DNA of 64,000 nt, taken from NCBI GenBank assembly GCA_000091205.1, contig AP006490.2; one strand, written 5' to 3'. The DNA comes from Cyanidioschyzon merolae (lineage: Eukaryota). The notes below the pieces were generated by a model. The model did no database searches. It worked only from the letters and a program-made list of their open reading frames with translations, and was not told where the DNA came from. Position 1 is the first letter of the stretch. Each line of letters opens with the position of its first letter. A program made the translations under genes and the position numbers. Shown one piece after another: positions 12,384-53,453 of the stretch.

Positions 12384-13211
12384 TTAATTATCTGCCATTC
12401 GGTATTCTTCAAGTTCCCGGTCGAGTTCCTCAGCACTCTTTGATGGAGCTTCCTGTCCACGAGGGCGCGTTGGTCGCCGCATTCGACGACGCCCACGTGC
12501 CTTCGTGGTGCGTTTCGCAGTTGAATCGTGTTTCTCGGACTCGAAACCCGGGGTCGCTGTCGACTCAGTCTCCATTTGCTGACCATCGCCAGCTGCCTGC
12601 ATTCGAAGTCTGCGTCGACGCCGTGCTCTGCGACGCTCCATCGTTTGGGTGCTCTCGAGCACACGAACAACGTCCCGCACACCGCCCTTGCCGGCGACAA
12701 TGCGCAGTCCGCCAACCGCCTCAGCAGTAGGTTTTGGCACCGGCGGAAGGCGCGCGCCCCGTTCCTTGAGCCGAAGCTTCCGTTTGGGTGTCATAGACGG
12801 TGGAACAGCCGACCTCTGCGTTTGAGGGTGCGCCCCGGACGTATTCAGCGCAGCCGCGGCACCCGAGCTTTCGATCTGCACCACAAGCGGCTGCCCGTCC
12901 AGCGTCAGCGAGTGAAACTGTTTCACCGCGCGCTCTGCTGTTTCCATATCCGCGTACTTGACAGTTGCGACGCCCTTGCTCTTACCCTCACGATCATGGC
13001 GAATGAACGCGGTAATAGTTGGACCAACCGAGTTAAAAAGGTCGGCAATATCTTGAGAAGTCACCGACGGGGCCAGGTTGCTCACGGAAACAACAACAGC
13101 TTTCGAGCCGGGTCGCTGACCGGCCTGAACAACCCTGCGACGCCTTTGGGCTTTTCGAATTCTCCCCTGGGCGACCGCCTTGGGAACTCGCGCTGTGTGA
13201 TCAACTTGCAT
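12384..13211 (-). CDS. ALY/REF (THO complex subunit 4)-type mRNA export adaptor with an RRM.
   Basis: Central RRM ('VVVSVSNLAPSVTSQDIADLF...SKGVATVKYADMETAERAVKQFHSLTLDGQPLVVQ'). R-rich flanks on both sides. C-terminal 'SAEELDRELEEYRMADN' matches the conserved UAP56-binding tail of ALY/REF. Confidence 0.75.
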   Translation of the reverse strand: MQVDHTARVPKAVAQGRIRKAQRRRRVVQAGQRPGSKAVVVSVSNLAPSVTSQDIADLFNSVGPTITAFIRHDREGKSKGVATVKYADMETAERAVKQFHSLTLDGQPLVVQIESSGAAAALNTSGAHPQTQRSAVPPSMTPKRKLRLKERGARLPPVPKPTAEAVGGLRIVAGKGGVRDVVRVLESTQTMERRRARRRRRLRMQAAGDGQQMETESTATPGFESEKHDSTAKRTTKARGRRRMRRPTRPRGQEAPSKSAEELDRELEEYRMADN

Positions 13212-13384: not shown

Positions 13385-14380
13385 TGCGCGGGGCAGGGAG
13401 CATCCACGAAGCTGTATCCTGATGGATCCGTATGAGCGGGTGTTTGTGGAACTTGCTCGCCGTGGGGCGTATGGATGCTTTGGAACGTACCCCAGTGCAG
13501 CATATCTCTGTGTCTGTGTCACGTCCGTGACTAGGAGCATCCACGAAGCTGTATCCTGATGGATCCGTATAAGCGGGTGTTTGTGGAACTTGCTTGCCGT
13601 GGGGCGTATGGATGCTTTGGAACGTACCCCAGTGCGGCATATCTCTGTGTCTTTGTCACATCCGTGACTGGGAGCATCCACGAAGCTGTATCCTGATGGA
13701 TCCGTATGAGCGGGTGTTTGTGGAACTTGCTCGCCGTGGGGCGTATGGATGCTTTGGAACGTACCCCAGTGCGGCATATCTCTGTGTCTGTGTCACGTCC
13801 GTGACTGGGAGCATCCACGAAGCTGTATCCTGATGGATCCGTATAAGCGGGTGTTTGTGGAACTTGCTTGCCGTGGGGCGTATGGATGCTTTGGAACGTA
13901 CCCCAGTGCGGCATATCTCTGTGTCTGTGTCACGTCCGTGACTGGGAGCATCCACGAAGCTGTATCCTGATGGATCCATATGAGCGGGTGTTTGTGGAAC
14001 TTGCTCGCCGTGGGGCGTATGGATGCTTTGGAACGTACCCCAGTGCGGCATATCTCTGTGTCTTTGTCACATCCGTGACTGGGAGCATCCACGAAGCTGT
14101 ATCCTGATGGATCCGTATAAGCGGGTGTTTGTGGAACTTGCTCGCCGTGGGGCGTATGGATGCTTTGGAACGTACCCCAGTGCAGCATATCTCTGTGTCT
14201 TTGTCACATCCGTGACTGGGAGCATCCACGAAGCTGTATCCTGATGGATCCGTATGAGCGGGTGTTTGTGGAACTTGCTCGCCGTGGGGCGTATGGATGC
14301 TTTGGAACGTACCCCAGTGCGGCATATCTCTGTGTCTTTGTCACATCCGTGACTGGGAGCATCCACGAAGCTGCGTCATG
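13385..14380. repeat. Tandem satellite of about 7.2 units with a 137-bp period (one 138-bp unit).
   Basis: The 'atccacgaagctg' unit start recurs at 13401, 13539, 13676, 13813, 13950, 14087, 14224 and 14361. Units are 93-97% identical with mosaic variant sites (gagcgg/aagcgg, gtctgtgtcacgtcc/gtctttgtcacatcc). Confidence 0.95.
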
Positions 14381-14956: not shown

Positions 14957-16096
14957 TTGGCAACGGTGCGTCCAGCCAAGCGGCCGCGGCTGCCGAGCGA
15001 CTCGACGGCGCCGCTGCGAAACGCAAGGCTACGCATCGACTTGTCGAGTCTACTAAGAGGTATGCATATGCAGGGGGCCTTTGTTGCTGCCGGGAAACCG
15101 CCTTTCAGGATTCACTTAGTGCACGAGAAGCAGCCAAAATTTTTGCACGGTGCTGGTGTGAGGTATAGCGCTCGATCAACTCGTTGGTATCGTTGGAGTC
15201 TACGGTGCACGAGTTCTGAATCGAGGACGACGAATACTGCTGCACCTACCGAGAAACTGGGGTTCATTGGCGGCACTGGGAACATGGGGTCGTCCATCAT
15301 CAAAGGACTCATTGAAGTGCAAGCACTTAGCCCACAGCACATCCTGTGTAGCGGTAGGGATGCTCAGAAGCTGGAACGCTTCTCAATTGAGACCGGTTGC
15401 ACCGCGATGACCGACCTTGCAACGCTCTGTGCCCAGTCGACGGCACTTTTTCTCTGTGTAAAGCCTGCTCAGTGTCAGGCAGTTCTGGAACGTATGGTAG
15501 CCGAAGCCGGCGAGAGTCTGAACGGTAAGCGTCTGATTTCGGTAGCAGCTGGGGTCCCGGTTTCGGCTCTGGAGCGACCACTGCGCGTTGAAGCCGTGGA
15601 ACAGTGCCGGTGCCGGGTACTCCGCTGCATGCCAAACGTGTTGGTTCGGCACGGCCTAGGTGCTATGGCCGTATCACGGGGAACGACTGCAACGGACGAG
15701 GATGTTTCATGGGCGCTGCAGTTGCTCGGGCGCCTGGGCCTGGTTGCCGAGCTCGAGGAGTCTCTCATGGACGCCACGGTGGCTGCCGCTGGAAGCTCAC
15801 CTGCATTTGCGTTTATCTTCATGGAAGCGCTGACGGATGCGGCGGTGAGAGAAGGTCTACCACGCCACATCGCACGCAGTTTTGTGGCGCAGACGCTTTG
15901 TGGTGCCGCCCAGATGGCTCTTCGGGATTCAGATGCTCACTTTGGAGAACTGCGTAACCGTGTCGAGTCACCGGGTGGCACCACAATCGCTGGCTCATGT
16001 GCATTGGAGGAGAACGGATTCCGCAAGGCCGTGATTGCCGCAGCAGCCGCTGCAGCTGCCAAGTCTCGCGCGTTCGCGGACCGCTTCTCCGCGTGA
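14957..16096 (+). CDS. proC: Pyrroline-5-carboxylate reductase with an N-terminal extension of about 90 aa.
   Basis: 'LGFIGGTGNMGSSIIKGL' (NADP-binding), 'RCMPN' and 'SPGGTTIAG' (P5CR signature). Colinear over about 280 aa. Confidence 0.85.
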   Translation: MATVRPAKRPRLPSDSTAPLRNARLRIDLSSLLRGMHMQGAFVAAGKPPFRIHLVHEKQPKFLHGAGVRYSARSTRWYRWSLRCTSSESRTTNTAAPTEKLGFIGGTGNMGSSIIKGLIEVQALSPQHILCSGRDAQKLERFSIETGCTAMTDLATLCAQSTALFLCVKPAQCQAVLERMVAEAGESLNGKRLISVAAGVPVSALERPLRVEAVEQCRCRVLRCMPNVLVRHGLGAMAVSRGTTATDEDVSWALQLLGRLGLVAELEESLMDATVAAAGSSPAFAFIFMEALTDAAVREGLPRHIARSFVAQTLCGAAQMALRDSDAHFGELRNRVESPGGTTIAGSCALEENGFRKAVIAAAAAAAAKSRAFADRFSA

Positions 16097-25858: not shown

Positions 25859-26939
25859 TACCAGAATTGTACAGATATATTCAGAAAAATTCGAAATTGT
25901 GTCCGTTCATCTTGCGCGCAGCGCAGCCGCTTCTTTTCCACAGCAGCGGCTACGGTCGCGCACCCCACGCTCCGGATGCGCCTACACGGTGTTTGGCGAA
26001 ACGGTGATCCGAGGCCATCGATCCTCGCCCGAATTCCAAGTTCCATCATCCATGCTGCTTCTCGGATATACTGATTACCTTATGGGTTCTATCCTTCGCC
26101 GAGTGCCTGCCTTGCTGCATCCGTGATAGCGCGTATGCCGCTGGTGCGGATGCATGACGGAGACTGTACGGCTTTGCCGTACCGCTGAGGGCGTCGACTC
26201 GAGGTGGGATTCCCCTCACACGGGGTCGGGATTCATGATCATGCTGGGAGCCTGCGGCAGTGCAAAGCGATATCCTAGAAGGCTACCACGATCAGGGCGG
26301 CGCCTAGACGCAGCATACCCGCTGCAAGTCTCAGAATCGGCTGCGTTACGGACAGGCTGCTCAGATCGCACTACAGCACCCGCTACCAAATGGGAACGTG
26401 AAGCACTGGCGTGGCAGGCTCGTCCGGCTCACGGGACCGCACCCCTTGAAGGTAAACTTTCGAAAATAGGGGAAGCGTTTCCCATTTTCTAACGTTTACC
26501 ATGCGGGTCGAACGAACTTGTTATATCGTTACTAGTAAGTTCTTAGTTTGTGGTCTTTGTTCTATATAGTGCGGTCGAGATGCGCACCTGCATTTCTGGT
26601 AGGCGTGAGATACGACGCGCATCTCGCCGTTGAAGGGGAACGCGATCCTGACCGTTAGCGTGCCGCTCTAACTTACAAGTTGGATCGACGTTGAAGTGAT
26701 TGCAAAGCATAGGCTTTCAATTCAATTGTATTTCAACCCTCAAGTGAGTGTATTCAAGTGCTTCTTCGCGGTTTATAGCAGACGCGTTCAAAGCGCGTTC
26801 GTTTTCGAATGTGAAAAAGAAAAGGTATAGACATGCAAGTCGAGGATTCTGGAGGCCCGATGTCGCCGGATTCGACAGCAAAAAACGAGAAAAAACCCGC
26901 ATCTCGCCTGCTGCCGGACGAAGGAGAGCATGTGACGTA

Positions 26940-27306
26940 GTAAAAAGAAGAAGGTAGATAGAAGAGAAAAGATGTTGCGTCGACGGGACGATGACGAGAG
27001 TGTAGTGGCACAGAGGGCACGCAGTTCAGGAACCCTTGCAATCGTGAGTTCCACCAGAGGCAATGAATGCATGGAGCTCGTGACCCAAGACTTTAACGCC
27101 GCCATCCAGACCAGACGAAATGTGGTGCTGAAGACGAGATCCGAGACGCTGAAGCGAGCCAGCTTCCTGGGAGCATCCTTCTGGGGTCGAAGTGTGCATG
27201 CAGAAATTGAAACTGATAGCAGGTCACGGGTCAAAATAGGCAGAGAGGCGTCTGCGGGTGGATGCGCTTTTACCCTCCATGGCCGTGAAACGTTGTTCGT
27301 TTCGCT
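26940..27306 (+). mobile_element. 5'-truncated copy B1 of the TnpB/Fanzor-like element: C-terminal coding remnant plus conserved 3' terminal block.
   Basis: 27000-27255 aligns with the minus strand of 1-230 and with 30468-30600. The 3' block 27245-27306 ('gcgtctgcgggtg...cgtgaaacgttgttcgtttcgctga') is nearly identical to 30600-30664. Confidence 0.5.
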
Positions 27307-27322
27307 GAACGTGTTTGTCTGA
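26972..27322 (+). pseudogene. Degenerate TnpB/Fanzor C-terminal fragment. The ORF runs on into the non-coding 3' block.
   Basis: 'ECMELVTQDFNAAIQTRRNVVLKT' is homologous to 'CRACMEFVNRDLSAAINIRRCAVLKT' of copy A. The Asp of DxNAA is kept, the cysteines are mostly lost, and there are frameshifts upstream. Confidence 0.5.
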
Positions 27323-29169: not shown

Positions 29170-30670
29170 GTTCTGCAGCGTGTTCCAGTCTTTCAACTCA
29201 AATTGGTTCATCCCCATTGTGGGGTATAGTAGGCGGTAGGCATCACGACGCAGTATAACCATAGATTGTAGAAGAATTGCCTGTATGATCGATTCTGTAC
29301 CGAACAGTGAAAGGAAGATTGCATTCCTCCTTCAGTGCTGTCATACAACAGGATTCGGATGGTTGACGGGCACTGAAAGGAAGAAGTATTTACGCTCAAG
29401 GCCAAAAACAGATGCTCTCGAAGAATGCGTGCAATCAATTGAAGAAATCGATCCGTGGATCACTTTATGGAAAGCAAAAACGACTATTGTAGCCGCAAAG
29501 GGCGCTTCTGTTTCTGAACAGCTCGTTCCAGTGATCCAGAAAACACTGGGATACAGTCTCAAAAAAATATTTTAGTCGGCGAATGGCCATCTTCCACCGA
29601 TATCGCAACGACACCGCTCCTGGAACGTCGCTCTCGGTATGAATCACCGCCAACTCTGTTTGTTTCCCAGTCGATGAGACTTGCTTCGGATGAAACGAGC
29701 GGAGCTTATACGGGTATACGCGGAGCAGGGCACCCGTTACGTTTCCGATCAAGCTCGAGGAGATCGACGAAATCATCTCTTCTAGCTGTAGTGAATGCTT
29801 TTCGCGGCCTCGGTTTCTCTCGTAGAGAAGGCTCACACAGCGGCACCCTCTGCGTCGATTCATTGAGGACTTTTCCCTGACATCTGGTGACGTCCTTCTA
29901 TTGGGCAACGTGACATTCCACTGTTACTCTTGCGTTCCAGCTTTTGCCAGTTCTATCGGGGAGTAGAGCTGCTTTTCATGCCTCCGAAATCTCCGTAGTT
30001 CAGCCCCTTGTAGGAGTGTTTTCGATCGAGAATAGTAATGAACGCTCCATTGGCTGAATTGCTGAGCGTTCAGCACACGGTGACAAACCGGAGCACATGT
30101 GGTTTATCTTGCAAAAAGTCGTCCTCGCTCCGGAAAGACGCTCACCCAACAGCATAAACAAGTGCGTTCATTTGAACGGTTCAAAAATCTAGGGGAAAGA
30201 TATTGATATGAAATTCGAGGATCCTGGAACGCAGTCACCGGAGGTTGCCGAAAAAACGGAAAAATCCTCTTCTCATCCAGCATCGAGTGAAGAAGAACAA
30301 GTGTCGCAAGGAGGCGAAGCGGAGATATATTCGAGAAATGGTGTTTGACGGATGGGACCTTGACGAGACTTGAATGGCACGGAGGACACGAATTTGAGGA
30401 ATGAGTTCAACCGGCGGCAATAATCGCACTGGGTTCTGGAATCGTATCGTATACCTCGTCCTCAATCTCAGGAAATGTGCGGAGCTGAAAAAGAGACCTG
30501 CGTAGCTGACGCGATCCAACTTCATAGGATAACCTCTCAGGCTCGTAGCGTGCCTGCATAAACTGAAACCGAGAGCAGCTCATCGCTCAAGAAAGGCTCG
30601 GAGGTGTCTGCGGGTGTGTATATATTTATCCTCCGCGGTCGTGAAACGTTGTTCGTTTTACTGATAACAT
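29170..30670 (+). mobile_element. Copy B2 of the TnpB/Fanzor-like element. It has full-length homology to copy A but is frameshifted. The 3' end is about 30664.
   Basis: The reverse complement of 29170-29560 aligns with 994-1370. The + ORF 'KAKTTIVAAKGASVSEQLVPVIQKTL' is a frame-conserved homologue of A's 'KAKATIVATTGASVSPQLVRGVLKSL'. 30468-30664 aligns with the A and B1 3' regions. Confidence 0.5.
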
Positions 30671-30989
30671 ATATATGCAGCGCCCAAGTTTCAAGGCATT
30701 TGCAACGAGGATGCAGGTTTCGATGGATGCGCATACAAGGCCGCGGCATCTTCGGAGATCGTGGATGGTGTACTGCCTGCTGCATGGTACAGAATCGATG
30801 AAGTTGATCCGAGTCTTGTGGATGTATGAATCATTTCCGCAGCCGAGAAGCGGGCATCGATTCCATCAAAGAAAATTCCGCATGCTGCCGATGCTGTACC
30901 CGAGTCAGATTAGAATGGAGCACTGTACTGCTCGTTATGATCAAGCCTTTTGTTTTTTGAACTAATTTGCGGGTACAGTCTTGACGTTC

Positions 30990-32200
30990 GAAGTGAATCA
31001 ACCGGGTTGAAGGATTCATGAGTAGTTTCAGGAGTCTCGATCGTCGTTGCCGGGCAGCCGCTTAGCCGCGTGGCTGCTGGTATTCGTTACGGCACCGGGA
31101 TCAAGGTGCATCGCGACGCCCACGAATTGAGGTTCGTAATATAGTCGACTCGTATACCGATGCATGCGTTCGAGCCGGCACTCTTCGCCTTTTCTAGCGT
31201 TCAGTACGCTCACGTCACGCATAGTTCGCGCCTTCGATCGTGCGGTTTCCCAGCAACAACACATGGGCGCAGCAGTTCGCGCTGCCCCACTGACGAGGAA
31301 GCGTACGCGCCGTCATCGCTTGAACGAATTGCTCAGAGGCACACACGCCGAGCATTCACTGCACTGGGCACCTGCAATACTCGATTCCACTCGAATGATG
31401 CATCGTCCATGCTTGTGCGCATCGACGCAACCGCACGCAACCGCACCCAGCAGCAGCAGCAGCAACAAAAACAACAACATAGTACATCTCACGGGATACG
31501 CTCGGGGAAGCTCCCGTCTCTTTCCTATAGACGGAAAAGGGTCGTGCACCAGGGCTCGCGTCATCGCGGCGATCATATGCCGTGGAGCGTGCGACACCGC
31601 GTTGCATGGACGCAGCTCAGCCGGATCGACTGTGTGTTTGCGTCATGGAGTTTCCTTGCTGCACGTGCTCCACCAGGGACAGCATCGCGATCCACAAATC
31701 CGCCAGTGAATGGAATAGTGTGTACGCTTGCGCGCCCAGCGGACGCGGGACTTGTTGCCCTGATCGCCCGCAGCAGGTCCGTGGTCGTAGCGTGCGATAC
31801 CAGTCGCGGGAGCGTGGGGGCGTATGCAGGCGAGCACGCTGTACCCGTTCGGATCCTGGAACCAAGGGATGAAGCGAGCGCCTACTCGCCGCAGCGCAGC
31901 GCTCGGTGCCTGACATGTGGTGGACGCGCACGGGAAGCGCCTCTCGGTAGTCACGCGTGACTGCTCCTGAGCCATGCCGCCGTTGTATGCAAACCAGATG
32001 GACATGAATAACGACGCGTCGATCGCAACGACCACCTGCGCGTGAAACGCGTTGAGCACAGCCGGACTCCGCGGGATCGGGACTCGAATGGTGCCATCAG
32101 CATCCCTCGAGTGTTGATCATAGAGCCAGAGGGAACAGAGAGACCAGCGTATTGGAAATCGGCGGTAACAGAGACAGAATAAGAGCAGTCGCAGTAATAG
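30990..32200 (+). repeat. Copy 1 of a 1.2-kb direct repeat.
   Basis: About 98% identical to 37406-38610. Similarity decays at both edges. Contains a (CAG)n(CAA)n tract at 31448-31480. Confidence 0.95.
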
Positions 32201-32464
32201 ACTCCAAAACTTTATCATGGTAACAGGGGCAAGAAACCAAAACTTGAGCATGTTTACCCAGTTGTCTCTGCGTGGACGTATTCCATTTCATTCCGACACG
32301 GGTGCAAGGCCGCCAGTCGCAGTGTAACGAGGCACACCAGCCTCGGTGCGATGCTTCCGGAGTAACGCGCTGAAGCGGTGTCGCCTCATCGGATCGCTCT
32401 GCACTTGATGGATGGCGCCACGAGGGCCACAGAAAAGCAGACGGCGCGCGGGCGAGCGCATGCA

Positions 32465-32555
32465 CATCATGCGTGCGTGCGTGCGTGCATGCAGGACGCG
32501 ACAGCACGGAGGAGGCGCCGCCGCACGGACGCACGCACGCAAGCACGCACGCGTA
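32465..32555. repeat. Alternating purine-pyrimidine (GCGT)n / (GCAC)n tracts with Z-DNA potential.
   Basis: 'gcgtgcgtgcgtgcgtgcatgc' and 'gcacggacgcacgcacgcaagcacgcacgcgt'. Confidence 0.8.
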
Positions 32556-33063
32556 TGGACGAAACGGCACTTCGTGCCGGCGTTGCACACCAGGCCGCGC
32601 TGCACAGGTTGTTCACAACTTGGTGGTATTTCGGGTGCTTCCGGGAACCAGCACCAGACGACGCTCTTGACGTGGGCGAGAACCAAGCGCACTGAACTCA
32701 ACTAAAGCTCTAGATTTGCCTACGGTGGTAAACATACGCGTCAAGTGGGAGGCTTCAAAACCAAGCTTCGAGGCCGACACTGTTGCGGAGCGCTTCCTGT
32801 CCCGTGCGTTCCGCGTCTTCGAGTGGACCCGCTGCCTTCGAGATCCGCAACTTCGCGTAGCTGTCGTCGTTCTGACTGTAAGTGAGGATACCGGATTCGT
32901 GGCCGGACACGGACGGAGCTGCTGCTGCTGCCGCCGCTTTCTAGCAAACGACCAGCGCAACTCTTGATTAACAAAGCTGCACGGGCGTCAAGTTCGAGTC
33001 GCTGCTCAAGGCGCACGAGCTCAGAAGCTTTGCTTTTGTTTTTCAACCCGAGTAGCGAAACGT

Positions 33064-35730
33064 GTGACACGAGACGAGGTTCGCACACGCAATCGAGAGG
33101 CAAATCTCACGAAGCAACGAGGAGGCAAGTATCGAGCACGTGAGAACATGAAGGAGGACGGAGAAACTCGCACCCGTTTCTGGGCGTCCCAAACCGATGG
33201 TACGGGAGTTATAGCGGACGATCCCTGGCTGGAGCCCTTCCAGCACGATTTGCGATACCGTTACGCGCAGTATCTTGCCAAAAAGAAAGCCATTGAGGCA
33301 AACGAGGGCGGACTGGACAAGTTCACCCAGGGCTATCGGCTTTTCGGGTTCAACCTCACGGATGATGGGATATGGTATCGCGAATGGGCCCCAAACGCAG
33401 CTGAAGTGTTCCTTACCGGAGATTTCAATGGGTGGAACCGACGCAGCCACCCATTGAAACGAGAGGAGTTCGGTCGATGGAGCATATTTTTGCCGAATAA
33501 TGAGGATGGGTCTCGTGCGATTCCACACTACACGAAGCTCAAGGTGTTGATCGTCACGCCGACTGGGATGGAACTCATGCGCAATCCGGCATGGAGCAAG
33601 TTTCTCATCCAGAACCCTGACACCTATCTCTACGACACGTTGTTTTGGAATCCGCCACCTGAATGGACGTACCACTGGCAGCACCCGACGCATGTGAAAC
33701 GTCAGGATGCGCTGCGCATCTACGAATGCCATGTGGGCATGTCATCAAATGAGCCGCGAATAGGTACCTACGCGGAATTCCGGGATGTGGTGCTGCCGCG
33801 TGTCAAAAAGCTAGGCTATACTGCGATTCAGATTATGGCTATCATGGAGCACGCTTACTATGCTTCGTTCGGATACCACGTAACGAACTTTTTTGCCTGT
33901 AGCTCCCGGTGCGGGACACCCGAGGACCTCAAGTCGCTTATTGATACAGCGCATGCGATGGGCCTGCAGGTGCTCATGGATGTGGTGCATTCCCATGCAT
34001 CATCGAACATTTTGGACGGTATCAACCATTTCGACGGAACAGACAATTTGTATTTCCACGCTGGCGAGCGGGGATATCACCGCTTGTGGGATTCACGCTG
34101 TTTCGACTATGGAAGCTGGGAGGTGCTTCGCTTTTTGCTCTCCAATTTGCGCTGGTGGATGGATGAATACCATTTTGACGGATTCCGCTTCGATGGGGTA
34201 ACCTCTATGCTGTACACGCATCACGGGATAGGCATGAGCTTCTCCGGTGATTACCGGGAGTATTTCGGCCTTCACATCGATATGGATGCATGCGTTTACC
34301 TCATGCTAGCCAACGATTTTCTGCATACGTTCTACCCCGATGTCGCGCTCACTATTGCCGAGGATGTAAGCGGTATGCCAACGCTCTGCCGACCGGTCTC
34401 CGAAGGCGGTATAGGCTTCGACTATAGGCTGGCCATGGCGATACCAGACAAGTGGATCGAACTGCTCAAAAAGAGCGATGAGGAATGGGATATGGGAAAT
34501 ATCGCCTTCACGTTGATGAATCGCCGATACAAGGAGAAATCCGTGGCATACTGCGAGTCGCATGACCAAGCGCTGGTTGGCGACAAAACCATTGCATTCT
34601 GGCTTATGGACAAGGAAATGTACGATCATATGGCGCGTGATTCGGCGCCGAGCCTGCTCATTGACCGGGGCATTGCGCTGCACAAAATGATTCGCCTGAT
34701 CACATACGGCCTTGGCGGCGAGGCGTACCTCAATTTTATGGGTAACGAGTTCGGACATCCGGAGTGGATTGATTTTCCTCGAGAGGGTAACAACTTTTCG
34801 TACCACCATGCGCGCCGCCGATGGGATCTAGCGGATAACCCTTCTCTCAAGTACAATTTCCTGCAGCAGTTCGACATCAACATGCACGATATCGACACCA
34901 AGTATCCGTTTTGCCGCCCGGATAATCACCAGTGGCTTGTGCTTGCCCATCGCGATGATCACGTCATTGCATTCGAGCGCGGTGATCGACTGCTCTTCGT
35001 TTTCAATTTCCATCCCACTCGATCGTACAACGATTACCGAATTGGTGTCTGGTGGCCGGGCAAGTATCACATTGTGCTCGATACGGACAGTTGGGATACA
35101 GGAGGTCAGGGTCGCGTCCACTGGGATATCATTTACGAAACCAAGGCGGAATCTTGGCACGGACGGCCGCACTACCTGCAATTGTACTTGCCATGTCGGA
35201 CCGCGCAAGTCTATCGCTGTTTCGAAATGGCCGGTACCGAGCTGGTCGACAACGAAGCGCGCGCCGGCACACGACACGAAGGGTTGCAGCCTCCCGCGGA
35301 GCGACCCGCCGTCGACGGCGACGCTGCAGCCTCGAGCGATGCTGCTGGACGCGGGCCAGCGACAGCGGCAGCGGCTGGCGAGCAACCACCCCAAGTGACG
35401 CCCGAGGTCGCGGCACAATCCGAGACCCCGTCGCAGTCGGCGGCGATCGCGACGCTACCGCGAGGCGGCGACGCCGATGCCGCTGACGTTGCTCAGAGTA
35501 GCACCATCGCCCCGAATGCATCATCTGCTCAACATTCGGAGCGTGCGACACCGGCGCAGGAGAGCATGCAAGCGGCGGATGATTCCTCGCGTCCGTCGCC
35601 GGCAGCCGAAACGGCAACCGCTGCGCCCCAAAGCGCCGCTGACCCATCAACGGATCGCCGTTCGGGTAGCACAGATCGCCGCGAACATGCCGAGCGGAAG
35701 CGCCGAGGCCTCTTCGGGCGCTGGGGATAG
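33064..35730 (+). CDS. 1,4-alpha-glucan branching enzyme (GH13, eukaryotic GBE1 type). It carries a C-terminal low-complexity A/S/P/D-rich tail of about 190 aa. The start is probably M29 at 33148.
   Basis: Colinear match across about 680 aa, including 'GYHVTNFFA', '[10 protein letters not shown]', '[12 protein letters not shown]' and '[14 protein letters not shown]'. Confidence 0.95.
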
Positions 35731-36242
35731 ACTCGGGTTTATGGAAACGAAAACGACATAGGATGCGTTATAAATTCGTGTGTGAACGTAGTATCGTCTG
35801 ATCGTTTACCGAGGCAGGTTGCGAAACGAGGCGATGTACCAGAGTCCGACGACAACACCATCATTACTGCTACAGTCATCATCGGCGCACTCTGGTGGTC
35901 CTCCTCGTTCGATATCGGTCGGTATCGACGGAGCGGTCGCCATTTCTGCTGTCTGGGAGCAGGTTCCATGCGCTGGTGCTTGCCGCTAAGCGCTCGCAGC
36001 CAAGCGGATTCCGCAAAGTCGCTCCAGGGGTGAAGCACTCCGCTCCAAACATGCGGTTTGGTCGACGTATCATCAACACAGCTGGTGTATGTTAGCATTC
36101 TACCCTAGGCGAGACATCGAGTGCAGCAAGCGCATGGCAAGCATGAGGCGGTTTCTCAACGTTCTCTTCATGAGCCTGTTGTGTTCACCGTTCGTTTGAA
36201 TCATCTGGACCACGACACACGCATTCGTCGACGATGATGCAG

Positions 36243-37019
36243 CTACGATGCAGCCGCATCAACGTCGACTTTGGCTAGCCGAACGGCACGGGCCACGTTC
36301 GTTGGCAAAATCTTCAAGGCTCGGGCGAGTCTCGTGGGTACCATGCGCATCACTATGGCGATGTCGCGGTAGAGCTCCTGCTTCGTGGGAATCTTACCCA
36401 CGCGCGCCATAGAGTCGCCATCGTATAATTGTCCTTCAAGCACGCCGCCTCGGATTTTGTTGGTTTGCTCCAGCTTGAGCTCCTCGATAACTGCCTCGTA
36501 CGCTCGAATGGCGGCCGGCAAGTCATCGAGATTTTCGGCGAGGAACCAGAAGTTGGCGAGCTTCAGGAGCGGCTTTGCGAGCAGAGCATCCTCGCCCTCT
36601 TTCGAGGTCGACTGTAACCAGGTGACGCCGTTTGCTGCTTTTTGGAAATACGAGTTTTTAATAACCTTGCAGTGCACTGTAGCTGGAAGCGAGCTTTTGA
36701 GCCGCTCGAGCTGCTGGTGCTTCAGTCCCTCAAGAGGCAACGCAACCACAGCCTCCGCCTTGCGCAACTGTTCACGAAGGCTTTGGACTATAGCCTCCTT
36801 CTGTGCCCGGGTTTGGTGTCCCATGTGCAAACCTGGGAGCACACGGCGTGCTGCTGCGCTCGGACGCCGCGGTGCGCTGATGCACACGGAGCCGGAGCCC
36901 CAAAACCCTTGTTTTGCGCGCGGTTCTAGACCACACTGGGTAACGCTTGATACGAAAGCGTGCATATGGTATTGCCCACGAGAAACGTAGTTGGGTTCAG
37001 CGTGTACAGTGTTATACAC
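36243..37019 (-). CDS. rplJ: Bacterial-type 50S ribosomal protein L10 (bL10), organellar, with an N-terminal presequence of about 65 aa.
   Basis: 'QKEAIVQSLREQLRKAEAVVALPLEGLKHQQLERLKSSLPATVHCKVIKNSYFQKA' fits the bL10 N-domain pattern. Confidence 0.75.
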   Translation of the reverse strand: MYNTVHAEPNYVSRGQYHMHAFVSSVTQCGLEPRAKQGFWGSGSVCISAPRRPSAAARRVLPGLHMGHQTRAQKEAIVQSLREQLRKAEAVVALPLEGLKHQQLERLKSSLPATVHCKVIKNSYFQKAANGVTWLQSTSKEGEDALLAKPLLKLANFWFLAENLDDLPAAIRAYEAVIEELKLEQTNKIRGGVLEGQLYDGDSMARVGKIPTKQELYRDIAIVMRMVPTRLARALKILPTNVARAVRLAKVDVDAAAS

Positions 37020-37405
37020 CGGCTAGTCGTCCGCGTTTTGCGTCGCGTAGACAGAAGCGCGGGCGTGATGCCTCGCCTGCGTTCGCACACGCGTACGCAC
37101 GCGCACGGGCGCAGGGCGCCATCGGCGACTGCGGCGGCGCACAGCGGCCCGCCGTAGCGTCGATCAGAATGCGACGCATAAACGGTATAAAGCGGTATTG
37201 CGAGGCCAGAGTTGGATATAATGGTCAGGCGCACGTGTATCGCTGCATCGATGCGCAATCGACGATACGAGCAGGGGCACTGTGTGGCACGGGCACTCGT
37301 GTCCGATACATACGCAACGGGGAACTGCTCATTGTGTTCCTGGACGATGATGTATATCCCCGAGCCTTTGTTATATGTAGAGTCTCGACAATCAAAATGA
37401 AGAAA

Positions 37406-38610
37406 CCGGGTTGAAGGATTCATGAGTAGTTTCAGGAGTCTCGATCGTCGTTGCCGGGCAGCCGCTTAGCCGCGTGGCTGCTGGTATTCGTTACGGCACC
37501 GGGATCAAGGTGCATCGCGACGCCCGCGAATTAAGGTTCGTAATATAGTCGACTCGTATACCGATGCATGCGTTCGAGCCGGCACTCTTCGCCTTTTCTA
37601 GCGTTCAGTACGCTCACGTCACGCATAGTTCGCGCCTTCGATCGTGCGGTTTCCCAGCAACAACACATGGGCGCAGCAGTTCGCGCTGCCCCACTGACGA
37701 GGAAGCGTACGCGCCGTCATCGCTTGAACGAATTGCTCAGAGGCACACACACCGAGCATTCACTGCACTGGGCACCTGCAATACTCGATTCCACTCGAAT
37801 GATGCATCGTCCATGCTTGTGCCCATCGACGCAACCGCACGCAACCGCATCCAGCAGCAGCAGCAGCAGCAGTAACAGCAACAACAACAACATAGTACAT
37901 CTCACGGGATACGCTCGGGGAAGCTCCCGTCTCTTTCCTATAGACGGAAAAGGGTCGTGCACCAGGGCTCGCGTCATCGCGGCGATCATATGCCGTGGAG
38001 CGTGCGACACCGCGTTGCATGGACGCAGCTCAGCCGGATCGACTGTGTGTTTGCGTCATGGAGTTTCCTTGCTGCACGTGCTCCACCAGGGACAGCATCG
38101 CGATCCACAAATCCGCCAGTGAATGGAATAGTGTGTACGCTTGCGCGCCCAGCGGACGCGGGACTTGTTGCCCTGATCGCCCGCAGCAGGTCCGTGGTCG
38201 TAGCGTGCGATACCAGTCGCGGGAGCGTGGGGGCGTATGCAGGCGAGCACGCTGTACCCGTTCGGATCCTGGAACCAAGGGATGAAGCGAGCGCCTACTC
38301 GCCGCAGCGCAGCGCTCGGTGCCTGACATGTGGTGGACGCGCACGGGAAGCGCCTCTCGGTAGTCACGCGTGACTGCTCCTGAGCCATGCCGCCGTTGTA
38401 TGCAAACCAGATGGACATGAATAACGACGCGTCGATCGCAACGACCACCTGCGCGTGAAATGCGTTGAGCACAGCCGGGCTCCGCCGGATCGGGACTCGA
38501 ATGGTGCCATCAGCATCCCTCGAGTGTTGATCATAGAGCCAGAGGGAACAGAGAGACCAGCGTATTGGAAATCGGCGGTAACAGAGACAGAATGTGAGCA
38601 GTCGGTGAAC
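37406..38610 (+). repeat. Copy 2 of the 1.2-kb direct repeat.
   Basis: About 98% identical to 30990-32200. The CAG tract is longer (37851-37892) and contains TAA, which breaks the 266-aa + ORF seen in copy 1. Confidence 0.95.
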
Positions 38611-39753
38611 AAACCGGCAAGGGCTGGTGTTCATAACCACGGGAATAGATGCAAACTATAGTAGATATGCGCGCGTTGACAAAGCTTTACATTTTATTCC
38701 TGCATTGTTGGAGAGCGTACACCCGAACTGGCCAATGGACCTGTTCCGTTCTATTCTTTCGTGGGTGTAAACGTCCCGGGGATAGTCCATGCACCGAACC
38801 CGAATTCCTCGGATGTGCGATTGCTATCGGCCGCCAGGATAGCCGCAGTCACTTCTCTCCTGGTGCGTCTACGTTCGACAGACCTCTAGACCACTCCCCT
38901 GGTTGGCGATAGAGCTTCGATCAACCCTGCGAACCTGCAGGTGCCGAGCGTGCCGCACACGCTCGATATCCGGACGGATGCGCCGCTGCCGCCGACCGCA
39001 AAGAGAACGGCACTCCAGTGCCTTGACAGACACCAGCTCAAAATCTAGCGCATGGACACGAAGCGTTCTCCCGGTTGGGCAGCGTTCGCCCTGCACACCA
39101 GTAGGTATACGCGTTCACATAGTCCGTGTACACAAATGCGCTTGGGATCCTTTCGGGCCTGGGACCGCTGATGAGAGTGCTCTAATGGTATCCACGTACA
39201 GTAACGGCTGTTACGAGCCAGGACGCGTGTCACCTCTGTATCCTGGACTGCGAGAGTCGACATCCCATTGAATGTAGACAAGTGGACTGGGTGAGGGACT
39301 CAAAATCTCGGACCCAGCCTCTGCGCCCTGTACACGGGACTTTTATTCCTGCAGCGGTGCATAAAACCGTTGTTCACAACGTACGCATACTAGCATGACC
39401 GAAGTATCCGTTCACAGCTTCAAGGCTTATACTCGTACGACACGAAACTCGGAAGTTGGTCGATCGGCGCCTTCGCCAAGTTGCCCCAAAATCGCTGCAA
39501 CACCGTCCGTGCAGCCTTCACCGCACTCTATGCACAAGAACAGCGGCGCCTTGCGTTCATCACTACAGTTCAGCGGTTCGTTGTATGCAAACCAGCAACC
39601 ATACGACGGGACAAATGTCTCGCTGGTCGCTTGCAAGCGTGCTCCATGCACCGCGTTCAGCCAAACGCTCTGGCGTTGAACGCTCATCCACAGTGGCCCT
39701 GCGTATCGCACGATGATCCCGTGTCGACGTGCCGCTGCGTTGATCACAAAGCT

Positions 39754-43468: not shown

Positions 43469-46219
43469 TTATGTCTCTTCCGGAGGCGCCGGCTGCGTTG
43501 GTTTTATCGCCGGATTCCCAGACGTTGACGAAGACGATGGTCGATTCGGTGCAGACCTCGGCGCTGACGACGACGACGATGGAGAGCGGCCTGGCCGCGC
43601 ACTTGACCCCGACCCTGGAGCGTCCGATAAAGTCACGTTTCTGCTTGTATTGGCACGAGTCCCATTCGCGGATGCACCGGCGGCAGCATCAGAGGGCTGC
43701 GGTCGTTCCAACAAGGCCTTGCGACTAACGCGGACCTGGCCTCGTGCATTCACCTCAAGAACTTTCACGGCAATAACTTGATCTTCACGCAGAACGTCCT
43801 CAATTCGGTCTATGTGGTGCCAAGCGATTTCGGAGATGTGCAACCATCCCTCCTTGCCCGTCAGAGGATCCAATTCGACATACGCACCAAACGGAAGGAC
43901 TTTGGTTACCCGAGCCTGTTCGAAGACCTGACTCACCTCAACGTCCATGGTGATATTACGAATCATACGCGCCGCTCGCTCCAAGAGCTCTGTCTCGGGT
44001 CCGAGGATGCTCACGACACCGTCCGGTTCGATGTCGATTGTGATGTTCTCCTCGCCGCCACACGCTTCGATGATGCTGCGCACGACCCTGCCGCCCGGGC
44101 CGATGACGTCTCCGATGCGTTTCGGATCAATGTTGATGATCTTGATCTTCGGTACCGAACTGGGTACCGTTGATCTGGGCGCGCTGCATGCCGCATCCAT
44201 CACATCCAGCATGTGGATTCTTGCGTCGCGCGCCTGCTCCAGGGCCTCTCTGATGATTCCAAGCGTTATGCCCTCGACCTTGATATCCATTTGCAAGGCG
44301 GTGATGCCGGTACGTGTGCCCGCAACTTTGAAATCCATATCGCCGAGCGCATCTTCCATACCCAAAATATCCGTCAGTATGAGATAGGAGGGCGACTGAC
44401 GCGACACGTCCGGTTCCTCAGTCGTCTGGTCGAGAATGAGGCCCATGGCGACGCCCGCAACCGCTGCACTCACCGGAACGCCGGCATCCATGAGCGCTAG
44501 GCTGCCTCCACAAACCGACGCCATGGAACTGCTCCCGTTGCTCTCCATGATATTGCTCTCCACGCGTATCACGTATGGGAAGACCTCGCGAGGAGGTACA
44601 ACGGGCTCCAATGCTCGCTGGGCGAGCATGCCATGGCCAATCTCGCGGCGGCCTGGTGCTCCAATGCGTCCTACCTCGCCGACCGCAAAAGGCGGAAACA
44701 TGTACTGCAGGTAAAAATGAGCGGTATGCTCTCCGAGCAGCGATTCGGAACGCTGGGCGCTATCCTGACCGCCCAGCGTCACGACAGCGAGTGTCTGCGT
44801 CTCACCGCGGGTGAAAAGCGTCGAGCCATGCGCGCAAGGCAGCGGCGTTTGCACAATATCAATGGGGCGCACTTGATGCGGCTTTCGTCCATCTGCACGG
44901 ACTTTTTCACGTACAATGAGACGACGCATCTCGCTGGAGAGTACCCGTTTCCACGCCATCCGACAGAGTGTTTCGAACGCTTCCTCATCGGCGGCACCGT
45001 GCGTCTCGAGCTCCTGCTCTGTGACAGCATCCAAAAGCTCCTCCAGCACTTGTTCGCGTATTTCCGCCAGTGCCGCTTCACGCTGCTTCTTCTCCGCGAT
45101 TCGAATAGCTTGCGAGAGACCCATCTTTCGTGCGATCTTCCTCGTCTGCTCCAGCAAGGTGTCGCGCACACGACGCAGGTCAGCGTCATCTTTGGGAGCA
45201 CGCTCGGGATGCGCTGCAGTCACCAGCGCTTCCAGTCGTTCGATGCCCTCACAGATTTGTGCAATCGCTCGTTGCGCGACTTCAATAGCCTCAGCAATCT
45301 GCTGCTCAGAGGCGAAGAGACATCCCGCTTCGATCATAAGCACTGCGCTGCTGGTGCCCGCTACCACCATGTCCATGTATTTGCATTCACCGCGCATTTG
45401 TTGCTCGGTCGGATTCACCACAAAGCTTCCATCCTGACGCATTCCGATGCGAACACCCGCTACCCGAGCGCACATGGGCACTGGGGAGAGCGCCAGCGCC
45501 GCTCCGGCACCGCAAATAGCCAGTGTGTCCGCCTGGTGGGTGCCGTCGAATGAGAACACGTTGGCCAGGACTTGGGTTTCTTTGAAGAAGCCTTCAGCAA
45601 TACAAGGCCGCAGTGGTCGGTCAATGAGGCGCGAAACCTGAATTTCACGATCGCCAGGTCGTTCCCGCTTCAGGTATCCGGCGGATGTACGACCGACAGC
45701 GGAGAATTTTTCCACATAGTCGACGCGAAGTGGCACGAAATCGATGTTCGGTGAGAGCTCCGCGTCCGAGCAAGCCGTGCAGTAGACGACCGTGTCTCCG
45801 GAGCGCACCGCCACGGCGCCACCGGCCTGACGGGCGAAAAACCCTGTCTCGAGTTGAATCGGGGCCTCCGCACCCGGTACATTAATGTCCACGCTAAAGC
45901 GCTCGAGTTTCGCAAAAAGCTGGCGTAGACGACCCGTCGGGTTTGCCGTTCTCCATACGCACGCAGCACGCCGTTCGCTTTCAATGGATGCTGGAAATTC
46001 GTCCAGAGGGACTCGTATTCGGCGCAACACCGACACGGGTGTCGCGAACGTCCCCAACGTCGTCGTCGTCCAGGCAGCACTAGCTCTGGGCAACGGCGCC
46101 AAGTTCGCCACTCCGCTCCGGTGACTTGACCACGTGCAACCCGGGCATAGCACAAAGGTTGACGGGATATAGGCCCAAGGGTTCTCTTGCGAAGGCATGC
46201 CAGACGCTGTGTGGTTCAC
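43469..46219 (-). CDS. pnp: Polyribonucleotide nucleotidyltransferase (PNPase), organellar, with an N-terminal extension of about 110 aa and a C-terminal S/P-rich tail.
   Basis: Two RNase PH domains, then KH ('IGPGGRVVRSIIEACGG') and S1 ('GWLHISEIAWHHIDRIEDVLREDQVIAVKVLEVNARGQVRVSRK'). Colinear over about 700 aa. Confidence 0.95.
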   Translation of the reverse strand: MNHTASGMPSQENPWAYIPSTFVLCPGCTWSSHRSGVANLAPLPRASAAWTTTTLGTFATPVSVLRRIRVPLDEFPASIESERRAACVWRTANPTGRLRQLFAKLERFSVDINVPGAEAPIQLETGFFARQAGGAVAVRSGDTVVYCTACSDAELSPNIDFVPLRVDYVEKFSAVGRTSAGYLKRERPGDREIQVSRLIDRPLRPCIAEGFFKETQVLANVFSFDGTHQADTLAICGAGAALALSPVPMCARVAGVRIGMRQDGSFVVNPTEQQMRGECKYMDMVVAGTSSAVLMIEAGCLFASEQQIAEAIEVAQRAIAQICEGIERLEALVTAAHPERAPKDDADLRRVRDTLLEQTRKIARKMGLSQAIRIAEKKQREAALAEIREQVLEELLDAVTEQELETHGAADEEAFETLCRMAWKRVLSSEMRRLIVREKVRADGRKPHQVRPIDIVQTPLPCAHGSTLFTRGETQTLAVVTLGGQDSAQRSESLLGEHTAHFYLQYMFPPFAVGEVGRIGAPGRREIGHGMLAQRALEPVVPPREVFPYVIRVESNIMESNGSSSMASVCGGSLALMDAGVPVSAAVAGVAMGLILDQTTEEPDVSRQSPSYLILTDILGMEDALGDMDFKVAGTRTGITALQMDIKVEGITLGIIREALEQARDARIHMLDVMDAACSAPRSTVPSSVPKIKIINIDPKRIGDVIGPGGRVVRSIIEACGGEENITIDIEPDGVVSILGPETELLERAARMIRNITMDVEVSQVFEQARVTKVLPFGAYVELDPLTGKEGWLHISEIAWHHIDRIEDVLREDQVIAVKVLEVNARGQVRVSRKALLERPQPSDAAAGASANGTRANTSRNVTLSDAPGSGSSARPGRSPSSSSSAPRSAPNRPSSSSTSGNPAIKPTQPAPPEET

Positions 46220-46284: not shown

Positions 46285-46521
46285 CAGTGACGTCGACACC
46301 ACCGTGTGCAGACGCTGTGCAGGTAGTGAGGCACACACCGTCGCTGCGCGACCGCCGCGCCAGACGTGATCGCCTCTGCCGGGTGGCCAGCGCTCCTGGC
46401 GTCAAGCTTTGTAGGGTATGCTTCAAGGCTGCACTGGGGTAATCTAGTCGAGAGTAGACTCATCTGGGGTACTTCGTTCGCGTATAGCTCGCTCGGGGAA
46501 CAGCGGTGCGTGTCAACGCGA

Positions 46522-46657
46522 GCTGGGTTGTTCATTGGTTTGTGGGTCTTGATTCGAACGAATTGTCGGGTTTATTGGAGGTAGCGCGTGCTGGGTTGTA
46601 CACTGGTTTGTGCGTCCTTATTCGAACGAGGTTTCGGGTTTATTGGAGGTAGCGCGT
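46522..46657. repeat. 2 x 68-bp tandem duplication in the region upstream of the PNPase gene.
   Basis: Units 46522-46589 and 46590-46657 ('gctgggttgt.ca.tggtttgtg.gtc.t.attcgaacga...tcgggtttattggaggtagcgcgt') are about 88% identical. Confidence 0.85.
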
Positions 46658-50722: not shown

Positions 50723-51936
50723 AAATCGTCGTTGCCCATCCAGGCGCTACCCGTTGTGGTTCTATTTCGGGATCACTGTGGCGCGCTGATCCACCAGCGC
50801 TGGCGGCGCGCGCCATTCTGGGATGACGGCGGCGGAGCGCGGCCTCGCGTTTGACAACGGCGCTGCGCACGCTCCAAGCAGCGACACGTGCCTCATGAAC
50901 AGCGACTGCAGGCTGATGGCGTGCACGCACGAAGCTGCCAAATTTGGCGGCCGGCTCGCTGTCCGGTGCTCGCTCGCATCCGGTGCCGTCGCCACATGGA
51001 TCAGATTCAGTGCGGAATTGCGCTGAAATCCGCCGCAGATTGATTGCAACGCATTCGATATTCCGGGTGTGCGAATAGGTGCGAGGATTCAGGGGAAAGC
51101 ACAGCGCTTCTATCGCAAACGCTGTCGAGCAACGTCAAAGTCGAGAACAGAGTTACGAGTACGAGAAGAAGCGTGGCCGATTTTGAGAGCCAGCCGGTGT
51201 CAAACGTGGCCGGCACGCTTGCTGCGACGCTGGAAGCCGCCCCTCAGAGAATCTTCAGGAACGGTGCGTCTCAGGGCTCGGAGCAGGAACGGTGCCGCTG
51301 ACGGCAGTCACGCCCGTTGTACTGCGCACGATGTGCTATCGGCGATCGGAGCGCGCTCAAAATCCTAACTGTGAGTCTCGAGCAAGTCTTCTTGTCCACG
51401 CAGTGCGCAACGTCTCGTTACTATCGGGTTCGCGAGACGTTGCTGCGAACACGCGGGTGCTCTCGTGTACATTCGAGAAAGCGGCTGGTGCAAGCGAGAC
51501 TGTTGGTGTAATGCAGCGCTTTGCGCAGCGGCGATGTGCTGTAGCCGCAGTCGCCAACGCGAGTCGATGAAATATTTGCACGCCCAGCGCATAGCTGGTG
51601 ATGGAATTCGTATCGCTCCAGGGCGCGCAGACGCTCGCTGCGATCTCGAGCGATCAACATCCACTCGCTACAGAATACCCTTTTCAAAGTGGAGTCGAAA
51701 AGGTACCCGAGCTCCGGCGTACATGCTGTGGTTTGGGTTTCTTCGCTCTACGATCATCATCGCCAGCGTTTTGCGGATTTATTTATGGGGCTGCTTCGGT
51801 TTCGTCGCGTTCATCTCCGGGTTGAGATACGCGGGATCCGTCCTTTACCCCCAAATTTCGTTTTTATATGTAGAGGCAAGTTGATGACGAGGTCCAAGTC
51901 CCGATGTCGCCATGCCCGTCTGTTTCCAGGTAATTT

Positions 51937-52130
51937 CATGTACAGAATGGAGATGTGATTAACGTTTTGGTAGCCATTTTCATCCTCGTGGCACACACGC
52001 TGCGGTGCGCGCTTTGCAGCGGCGACTTGGCTGTGGTCAAGCGTGCTGATATATTGACCAGCAATATGATGCACAGAATGTAGATGCGATCTACGCTTTG
52101 GTAGGGATTTTCATCCCCGTGGTATACACT
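51937..52130. repeat. Two diverged copies, about 80% identical, of a 62-bp motif spaced 131 bp apart.
   Basis: 'atgtacagaatggagatgtgattaacgttttggtagccattttcatcctcgtggcacacac' versus 'atgcacagaatgtagatgcgatctacgctttggtagggattttcatccccgtggtatacac'. Confidence 0.7.
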
Positions 52131-52961
52131 CTCTGTGGGCCGATATGTTGACCAAGCCGCCTCTTCGGAGCGCCGCCCTGTGCTATGTGAAGGCGCGCTT
52201 CATGGCCCGGTACCGGCGCTCGAGGGCTACAGAGGGCTCGCCTCCGTACCCTCCCAGATGCGCGCCACTGGTACCGTACCCGCGGACCATGTGCGTCTTC
52301 TAGGCGACGACCTCAGCGATTACTCTATCCGCTGCATACGCCAGCGCATGCTTTATAGATTTGGTAAAGGTTTGTAGAACGTGATGTTGTCCATGATGAA
52401 ACAAGTAACGACAGTAAAATCCAGGCTGGAAATCGAGTCGAGAAATCTCGATCCGTCTATGTTCCATTCGTGCAGAGCGGTGCTGCACGCTTCACTGGAA
52501 GCGAATGCTGCCATGGCCCAAGTCCAAGTCCAGGATCCTTTTGTATCCAAAGAGAAGAGACGGGCGTCTCTCGGAGCATAGTCGATGACAGGTATCACGC
52601 TGATGTTGAATGTGATGCCATTAATGACCGAAAAGAGTTGCGGGTTTCTCCTGAGAATCCAATCCTGTATTCGACTTGAAAAGTTCAGTGAATTTTCTGC
52701 ATGAGCTTGTGAACGAGTCGTCAAGGAGCTACTTTTCACCTTTCTCGTGTTAAATTAAGCGGCATGCATCGCTCTGTCTATGAGTTGCCTTGAAACAGAA
52801 AGATCGAAAACTTGAAGAATGCGTGGTTTGAGGACGCTGCGCATCAGGAAAAGAGACGATTGGACGCCTGTCCATATGAATTGGATCACGGTATCGGTTT
52901 TTCACGAGCCGTTGTTCGAGGATATCCTAAATCATCTCGATTCGGATATCGTAACGAATTC

Positions 52962-52986
52962 CAGCAGCAGCAGCAGCAGCAGCAGC
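52962..52986. repeat. (CAG)8 microsatellite.
   Basis: Direct read. It lies within the unassigned ORF 52812..53336 and encodes poly-Q in that frame. Confidence 0.9.
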
Positions 52987-53453
52987 CGCATATCAAAGTG
53001 ACCAATCCGAATAGGCGACCGAGAATTCGAAAACGACGACGCATGAGTCCCAAAGCCCTCATTGCTGCACGCGTATTGCCGAAGCTGTCCATCCGAAAGC
53101 AAGGATTCTTAGAACTCGTGCCCTCTGTAACTGAACAGTCTCGTCATGGTCCCGTCGGGCAAACCGTTTTTCTCGACAATCTCCCGTCTTCTTTTTCAAG
53201 TGCACTCCTTCGCTCTATGATCAGCGAGAAGGGCATTTTATCGTTTTCCACACTGGCATCCGACGATGAAGGCCCTCCAGGATCCCCGACTTCCACGTCG
53301 ATGCCGTTCGCTTGGATCTCTTATTTGTTCAAATGAACGCAGTTTGAACGCATCTGCGATGAACCGCAAAAAAGCGTCTGATGGCATTCGCCTAGATGTG
53401 GAACGCATTGGAGATGTTCATTCTCGAAACGCTCTGCTTCCCTGAACCAACTA

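Follow-up and report, generated by a model that had tools for sequence, protein, structure and literature searches.

Dispersed repeats such as yeast Ty and human Alu/L1 elements, and duplicated genes too, are known to undergo ectopic (interlocus) gene conversion and concerted evolution. Here we describe a comparable situation in a 64-kb stretch (hereafter the window; all coordinates are positions in it) of chromosome 8 of Cyanidioschyzon merolae 10D, where two near-identical direct repeats of approximately 1.2 kb stand on either side of the convergent genes for 1,4-alpha-glucan branching enzyme (GBE) and chloroplast ribosomal protein L10. The repeats lie within two members, copies B (left) and C (right), of a dispersed family of elements approximately 1.43 kb long, and we consider it probable that both copies are old, dead transposons and that gene conversion has kept their middles alike. 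The locus resembles the known cases in its tract of high identity set in diverged homologous flanks, in the variants that the two partners have in common within one genome, in the patchy distribution of differences and in the linkage of the partners in direct orientation. It departs from them in that the relics are very old, with edges of approximately 50% identity and yet a core of approximately 99%, which implies long-running homogenisation, and in that the homogenised sequence appears to have no function attached to it.

Efficient homologous recombination, including gene conversion of a chromosomal allele, is experimentally known in C. merolae (PMC3764038). Two published accounts of repeats in this alga come closest to the element itself. 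Bao & Jurka (2013) described CMe-1A as an old, unclassified Fanzor1 family of C. merolae without terminal inverted repeats, and listed one Fanzor1 in the genome of white spot syndrome virus (WSSV) (PMC3627910); Nozaki et al. (2007) reported 253 copies of an interspersed element of approximately 3.2 kb with a wsv486-like open reading frame (ORF) (PMC1955436). CMe-1A and the 253-copy element are probably the same. The family described below has in common with CMe-1A its host, the interspersed distribution, the age, the lack of terminal inverted repeats and a TnpB/Fanzor-type C-terminal remnant. Furthermore, copy B and the related relic next to it (module 1) together span 3.14 kb, against the reported approximately 3-3.2 kb, a comparison made by published description only. 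The differences are that the unit here measures 1.43 kb, that its copies are 71-75% identical to their own consensus versus approximately 80% as reported, and that it has a Tc1/IS630-type DDE_3 front, which is unmentioned in PMC3627910.

Near-identical cores in two diverged copies

BLAST comparison of the window with itself aligned 30973-32191 with 37377-38604 at 97.88% identity over 1228 columns (E=0), with 17 mismatches and five gap openings, and both repeat finding and a MAFFT alignment concurred on the pair. The near-identical direct repeats around GBE and L10 that the first-pass annotation had pointed out were therefore recovered by all three approaches; no third near-identical copy was detected in the self-comparison of the 64-kb window. 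Copies B and C are directly oriented and 6.4 kb from each other, one in each of the spacers that border the GBE-L10 pair. Positions 30973-30999 contain eight differences diagnostic of the left versus the right copy and were excluded from what we term the homogeneous core (coordinates in Table 1), which shows 98.99% identity, 12 mismatches and nine gap columns. All nine gap columns belong to a CAG/CAA tract of different length in the two copies, as had also been noticed earlier. The length of this tract varies between strains as well as between copies, and the tract behaves as an ordinary unstable microsatellite.

Independent metagenome contigs show the pair as well. In two of them (L001 and L003), with 99.0-99.2% identity to the window, both copies are present at unchanged junctions, and in three others (L005, L006 and L023) each copy is anchored to its own unique flank.

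A profile search with nhmmer, started from the left copy, revealed four collinear copies of approximately 1.43 kb in the window (A, B, C and D) and further copies on unrelated contigs (L008, L009, L010, L014 and L015). Pairwise identities among members other than the B-C pair are in the range of 52-58%. The unit had earlier been taken for a locus-specific duplication, a view that largely gives way to a dispersed family with transposase- and Fanzor-like coding remnants; in the scan of metagenome contigs, only the 99%-identical version was specific to the GBE-L10 locus.

Within B and C, identity changes in a step. It amounts to 98.4-99.0% in the core, 49.3% in the left edge and 49.6% in the right edge, and the identity of the B and C edges with one another is no higher than that of either with copies A and D or with those of L008 or L009. 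On the left, it is approximately 49% over 30898-30972 and approximately 70% over 30973-30999, a shoulder that is a well-conserved block of the family; on the right, it drops directly to approximately 50% at 32192. Of the outermost stretches of reduced, approximately 70%, identity described in the first-pass annotation, the left one thus stands, as family-level conservation, and the right one does not. A family model from which B and C had been left out still aligned with the full length of either copy, and the four edges, each taken by itself, matched this model collinearly, with E-values from 6e-11 to 4e-3 (0 of 200 shuffles matched). Homology between B and C extends approximately 100 bp leftward and approximately 130 bp rightward of the core, with none past the element ends (30897 and 32324). 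Because the edges are only approximately 50% identical and match a model from which both were left out, we regard B and C as old, separate, element-sized copies.

The arrangement of two direct repeats of approximately 1.2 kb around an internal segment is also that of a long terminal repeat (LTR) or solo-LTR pair. Unlike in such a pair, however, the segment inside consists of two host genes with conserved synteny in Cyanidiococcus, and the identity of approximately 99% ends inside the older copies, approximately 100 and 130 bp from their termini, and not at the termini. The internal ORFs are those of GBE and L10, with no gag, pol or reverse transcriptase, so that the earlier rejection of an LTR retroelement is upheld.

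Probable concerted evolution of the cores within strains

We aligned 10 B and C sequences from the window and the metagenome strains, and also a four-way subset. At about 12 core sites the strains differ from one another and the two copies of a strain are alike. Bases specific to the window strain and common to both of its copies occur at 31070, 31212, 31224, 31249 and 31645; the corresponding sites are 31989, 32001 and 32003 for L001, and 31746, 31771, 31797 and 32060 for L003. No core site in the 10-sequence alignment consistently separated B from C, whereas the differences in the edges are all copy-specific, in all strains, and the core boundaries are identical across strains. The differences between B and C in the window form two clusters, 31122-31469 and 32048-32182, between which 578 bases are identical, and this patchiness suggests several short conversion tracts. 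In the finished 10D sequence, B and C alike have at 31070, 31249 and 31645 a base that is absent from all eight other sequences, an observation independent of any collapse of the repeats during assembly; exchange between the copies is the only explanation we have for these three sites. Taken with the identity step, the strain-specific bases common to both copies favour a conversion-homogenised repeat, which the first-pass annotation had named as one of two possible origins.

We infer gene conversion as the mechanism and envisage the following history. An ancestral unit would have arisen when an internal deletion joined the front of a Tc1/IS630-type DDE transposase to a Fanzor1/TnpB-like tail. 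B and C would then have inserted separately, 6.4 kb apart, on either side of GBE-L10, and their central part of approximately 1.19 kb would have been overwritten repeatedly, copy by copy, via intrachromosomal gene conversion in the course of homologous-recombination repair. The core would thereby evolve as a single lineage of approximately 99-100% identity, and the terminal 100-130 bp or so would have left the conversion tracts early and drifted to family-level divergence (approximately 50%). Since conversion needs high identity, it would have acted from the time when the copies were young and would not have begun between 55%-identical sequences. A single late conversion between copies already at 55% identity is less likely, and the data fit either variant.

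Several points weigh against this interpretation. Conversion is hard to start at 55% identity, so B and C must once have been more alike; an excess of B-C similarity would then be expected in the edges and none was detectable, in stretches of 75-132 bp that give the comparison low power. The B and C sequences of L001 and of L003 are 100% identical, and collapse or polishing of the consensus could inflate the concerted pattern there. Finally, a third near-identical donor copy is excluded through the metagenome relatives only, and not through the rest of the 10D genome.

Coding relics of a transposon

Individual copies of the family are too decayed to score with the Pfam profile DDE_3. We therefore built a majority consensus from eight independent family copies, on the plus strand of which coding sequence was restored. 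A 262-aa ORF of the consensus matched DDE_3 with 32.9 bits (cutoff 28.6; E=6.9e-8; profile positions 3-117 of 146), and the same ORF gave weak matches to Tc3-type helix-turn-helix (HTH) domains. It is directly followed by a match to Cas12f1-like_TNB (PF07282), the TnpB zinc ribbon, with 37.6 bits (cutoff 26.3) and the motif CHRC...CMKC...RNRDSNAAINI. The second half of the consensus matches two intact Fanzor-like proteins, P0071 (551 aa) and P0073 (610 aa), with E-values of about 1e-27, and has GYGTGRGNGGGH...RNRD.NAAINI in common with them. DDE_3 ends after its second Asp, at consensus nucleotides 834-844 or thereabouts, where the Fanzor-derived part starts; the junction is equivalent to residue 319 or so of P0071. 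Judged from the sequence, the family would be non-autonomous and would descend, by internal deletion, from a Tc1/IS630-type transposon with a Fanzor1 gene.

With Tc1/mariner-IS630 elements and their non-autonomous derivatives the family has in common the HTH and DDE_3 domains (the latter above the Pfam threshold), its size and its dispersed intergenic distribution, and a shorter derivative of a sister family occurs with the same internal deletion at two loci. In contrast to them, it has no recognisable terminal inverted repeats or TA target duplications, and DDE_3 is truncated and fused to Fanzor-derived sequence. No convincing terminal inverted repeats were seen in B, C or module 1, which decay may explain. 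Neither core retains an intact ORF in the frames of the transposon itself, and sequence searches of the consensus pieces against solved structures in PDB gave no match. Conservation across the family copies lacks 3-base periodicity, and the copies are therefore not under protein-coding constraint now.

The sister family is represented by module 1, a related relic 229 bp to the left of B, and by further copies or fragments at 9-1353 (minus strand), 26709-27313 (plus), 53033-53344 (minus) and positions 2527-2877 of L008. Module 1 carries Tc1/IS630-like motifs (LLLIPIYSPCFNRIEGVFSIVK) and a TnpB-like tail (CRACMEFVNRDLSAAINI), and its sister copy at 9-1353 has the TnpB-like motif CRAC...RDLSAAINI. 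An attempt to identify module 1 as a transposase from single copies was given up, as DDE_3 matches were sub-threshold only (E 0.003-0.005). A form of approximately 600 bp with an identical internal deletion is found at 26709-27313 and in L008 and might, by description, be the 635-bp TE-N2_CMe of Bao & Jurka. The two families together make up about 15% of the window.

The closest intact relatives of the Fanzor-like part, P0071 (L024, 5569-7224) and P0073 (L025, 6001-7833), are encoded on contigs (also L026-L029) that resemble giant-virus genomes, with RNA polymerase Rpb2, RNA ligase, Peptidase_S74 and many small ORFs. The G+C content of these contigs, 52-56%, is near that of the alga. A DDE_3 gene beside the intact Fanzor-like genes, as a putative parent element would have, was not found on the virus-like contigs. 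These relatives hint that Fanzor elements have been exchanged between viruses and the alga.

An annotated antisense ORF in the left copy

Copy B contains the annotated hypothetical protein CMH143C, with a paralogue in C. The ORF runs antisense to the DDE_3 and Fanzor frames of the transposon. In both 10D copies it stops at TGA (31643-31645); all other strains have CGA at this point and are open to 301-313 aa. The ORF had no Pfam domain even at E=10, and its remote 'homologues' are other transposon copies, which match it in all six frames. A reading of CMH143C as a Harbinger-type DDE protein, suggested by a pattern of motifs, was rejected (no Pfam match, no 3-base periodicity). CMH143C is thus probably a spurious antisense gene model.

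The locus and its counterpart in Cyanidiococcus

The convergent layout of GBE and L10, with one repeat in the 5' region of each gene, is as the first-pass annotation had it. Unique sequence of 824 bp separates the left repeat from GBE and 329 bp the right repeat from L10, and, relative to the two genes, the repeat copies point in opposite orientations. This arrangement speaks against a duplicated promoter module, another of the earlier suggestions, and we infer that the repeats are without function for the flanking genes. A search of Rfam gave no match at the gathering threshold over the window and none at E<=1 over B, and a tRNA search of the window found none; an interpretation of the repeats as structured RNA was abandoned on these grounds.

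The gene order of the locus (Ins-P5 2-kinase, GBE, L10, an 865-886-aa gene and PNPase) is kept in Cyanidiococcus yangmingshanensis (L016; GCA_026122185.1, JANCYV010000013.1 277957-300449) and in a related lineage (L017-L020), and no copies of either repeat family were found in the syntenic regions of these five contigs. The two spacers in C. yangmingshanensis measure 2.24 kb and 1.1 kb versus 4.28 kb and approximately 3.5 kb in the window, and are thus shorter by about 2.0 and 2.4 kb. Given the syntenic Cyanidiococcus locus without copies and its shorter spacers, the relics are insertions in the Cyanidioschyzon lineage, and GBE-L10 is in its ancestral place.

Two tandem repeats elsewhere in the window were also recorded. 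An array at 13396-14373 repeats a 137-bp unit 7.1 times (97% matching, no indels, score 1851); its period is not a multiple of 3 and it lies between ORFs 12384-13211 and 14957-16096. At 46517-46657, 2.1 copies of a 68-bp unit stand in tandem (87% matching), outside the PNPase ORF (43469-46219, minus strand) and at a distance of 298 bp from its start.

Table 1. Elements, their parts and genes at the GBE-L10 locus and elsewhere in the 64-kb window
Feature	Position	Strand	Evidence and remarks
Copy A	8341-9724	-	nhmmer; diverged, approx. 56% identical to B and C
Module 1, related transposon relic of approx. 1.5 kb	29182-30669	+	nhmmer; 229 bp left of B
Copy B ('module 2', full-length)	30898-32323	+	nhmmer; model without B and C matches 30893-32307
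B left edge, not homogenised	30898-30999	+	Family-model match E=6e-9
Left homogenised core (in B)	31000-32191	+	BLAST, MAFFT; BLAST-defined start 30973
Putative Tc1/IS630-type transposase relic (HTH + DDE_3) in B	31003-31704	+	Consensus-ORF tblastn, E=2e-35; C equivalent 37407-38117
CAG/CAA tract in B	31448-31468	+	C counterpart 37852-37890, longer
Hypothetical protein CMH143C (BAM79814.1) in B	31643-32251	-	Paralogue in C 38056-38640
Putative Fanzor/TnpB-like 3' relic (RuvC-II, zinc ribbon, RuvC-III) in B	31727-32240, end approximate	+	Consensus Pfam match, P0071
B right edge, not homogenised	32192-32323	+	Family-model match E=6e-11; 49.6% identical to C right edge
GBE, 1,4-alpha-glucan branching enzyme	33148-35730	+	BAM79815.1; Pfam CBM_48 / Alpha-amylase / Alpha-amylase_C
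Chloroplast ribosomal protein L10	36243-36965	-	BAM79816.1
Copy C (full-length, no adjacent module 1)	37295-38729	+	nhmmer; model without B and C matches 37294-38776
C left edge, not homogenised	37295-37403	+	Family-model match E=0.004
Right homogenised core (in C)	37404-38604	+	BLAST, MAFFT; BLAST-defined start 37377
C right edge, not homogenised	38605-38729	+	Family-model match E=8e-8
Copy D	51657-53099 (or to 53134)	-	nhmmer; approx. 55% identical to B and C; module-1 fragment at 53033-53344

Alternative explanations

A recent segmental duplication, by which a 1.2-kb piece was copied once, approximately 1-2% divergence ago, to a site 6.4 kb away, would account for the high identity and the few differences, and also for the presence of the approximately 99%-identical version at the GBE-L10 locus only. 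It was the other origin proposed in the first-pass annotation. We hold it to be highly unlikely, since the flanks of both copies continue beyond the core as family sequence at approximately 50% identity, each matching the family model, and the piece must have landed in register inside a diverged family member, which is gene conversion in effect; in addition, the strain-specific bases in both copies need an exchange after the strains split. For the same bases, repeated events at both sites would be needed if a young transposon subfamily were active, or if a third, master copy converted both. The unit is transposon-derived, as such a scenario would have it, and some C. merolae Fanzor1 elements keep intact ORFs (Bao & Jurka, PMC3627910), but the cores have none in the transposon frames, the element ends lie outside the identical part, and core-type sequence occurs in no other genomic context among the Cyanidioschyzon metagenome contigs. 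An active subfamily or master copy is therefore improbable.

Selection could also keep the copies alike if they were functional duplicates, either as a protein gene (CMH143C and its paralogue) or as a regulatory module for GBE and L10. The annotation places CMH143C on the minus strand of B, the ORF is open over 301-313 aa in other strains, and the 253-copy element of C. merolae, which is not shown to be this family, was reported to be transcribed (PMC1955436). Against this stand the in-frame stop that B and C of the window have in place of the CGA of other strains, the antisense position of the ORF with respect to the DDE_3 and Fanzor frames that can be recovered, its homologues, which are only other transposon copies matching in all frames, and the lack of 3-base periodicity and of an Rfam match; a regulatory role is further contradicted by the opposite orientations of the copies relative to the two genes and by the Cyanidiococcus orthologues, which do without the repeats. 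We give functional duplicates very little credence. Duplication of one copy in the assembly, which had been named at the outset as a possible error, has nothing specific in its favour, although such repeats disturb short-read assemblies (L002, L004-L007, L021). The window matches the finished, telomere-to-telomere 10D sequence (PMC1955436), the copies differ at 12 sites and in tract length and have different flanks, and the independent contigs mentioned above either carry both copies (L001, L003) or anchor each to its own flank (L005, L006, L023), so that this explanation can practically be dismissed. We thus retain gene conversion between two old transposon copies as the preferred interpretation.

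Possible recombination products

Two contigs have the structures expected of reciprocal products of a B x C crossover. One (L002; Ga0207433_10057900, 4083 bp) runs from the left flank to the right flank through one hybrid repeat, made up of the left edge of B, the core and the right edge of C, and so represents a deletion junction. The other (L021; ENA ERZ27249350 k141_215258, assembled with MEGAHIT, 6542 bp) is a closed loop, the first 141 bases of which equal the last 141, with a period of 6401 bp that comprises one repeat, GBE and L10. Both structures would equally result from two wrong paths of an assembler through a collapsed two-copy repeat. We lean towards assembly artefacts, because the contigs come from different samples and because loss of the chloroplast L10 should be deleterious. 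It is quite improbable that the repeats recombine in natural populations to give a 6.4-kb circle of GBE, L10 and one repeat together with a deletion chromosome, of which L021 and L002 would be the record; the double-strand breaks behind such recombination, and behind the homogenisation as well, might then come from a still-active Fanzor RNA-guided nuclease belonging to this element superfamily.

Significance

The element is a transposon relic of known kind, and the case is one of ordinary genome biology with some local interest. For engineering or polymerase chain reaction (PCR) typing of the GBE/L10 region, recombination and mis-assembly between the repeats are to be expected. The fused coding relics hint that Tc1/IS630-type transposons were the carriers of the Fanzor1 repeats of C. 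merolae, which are so far unclassified. A repeat pair that stands out in the finished genome of a model alga can be re-read as transposon relics plus gene conversion, and the locus would offer a clean natural case of concerted evolution within one chromosome, in a compact algal genome and in an organism prized for its efficient homologous recombination.

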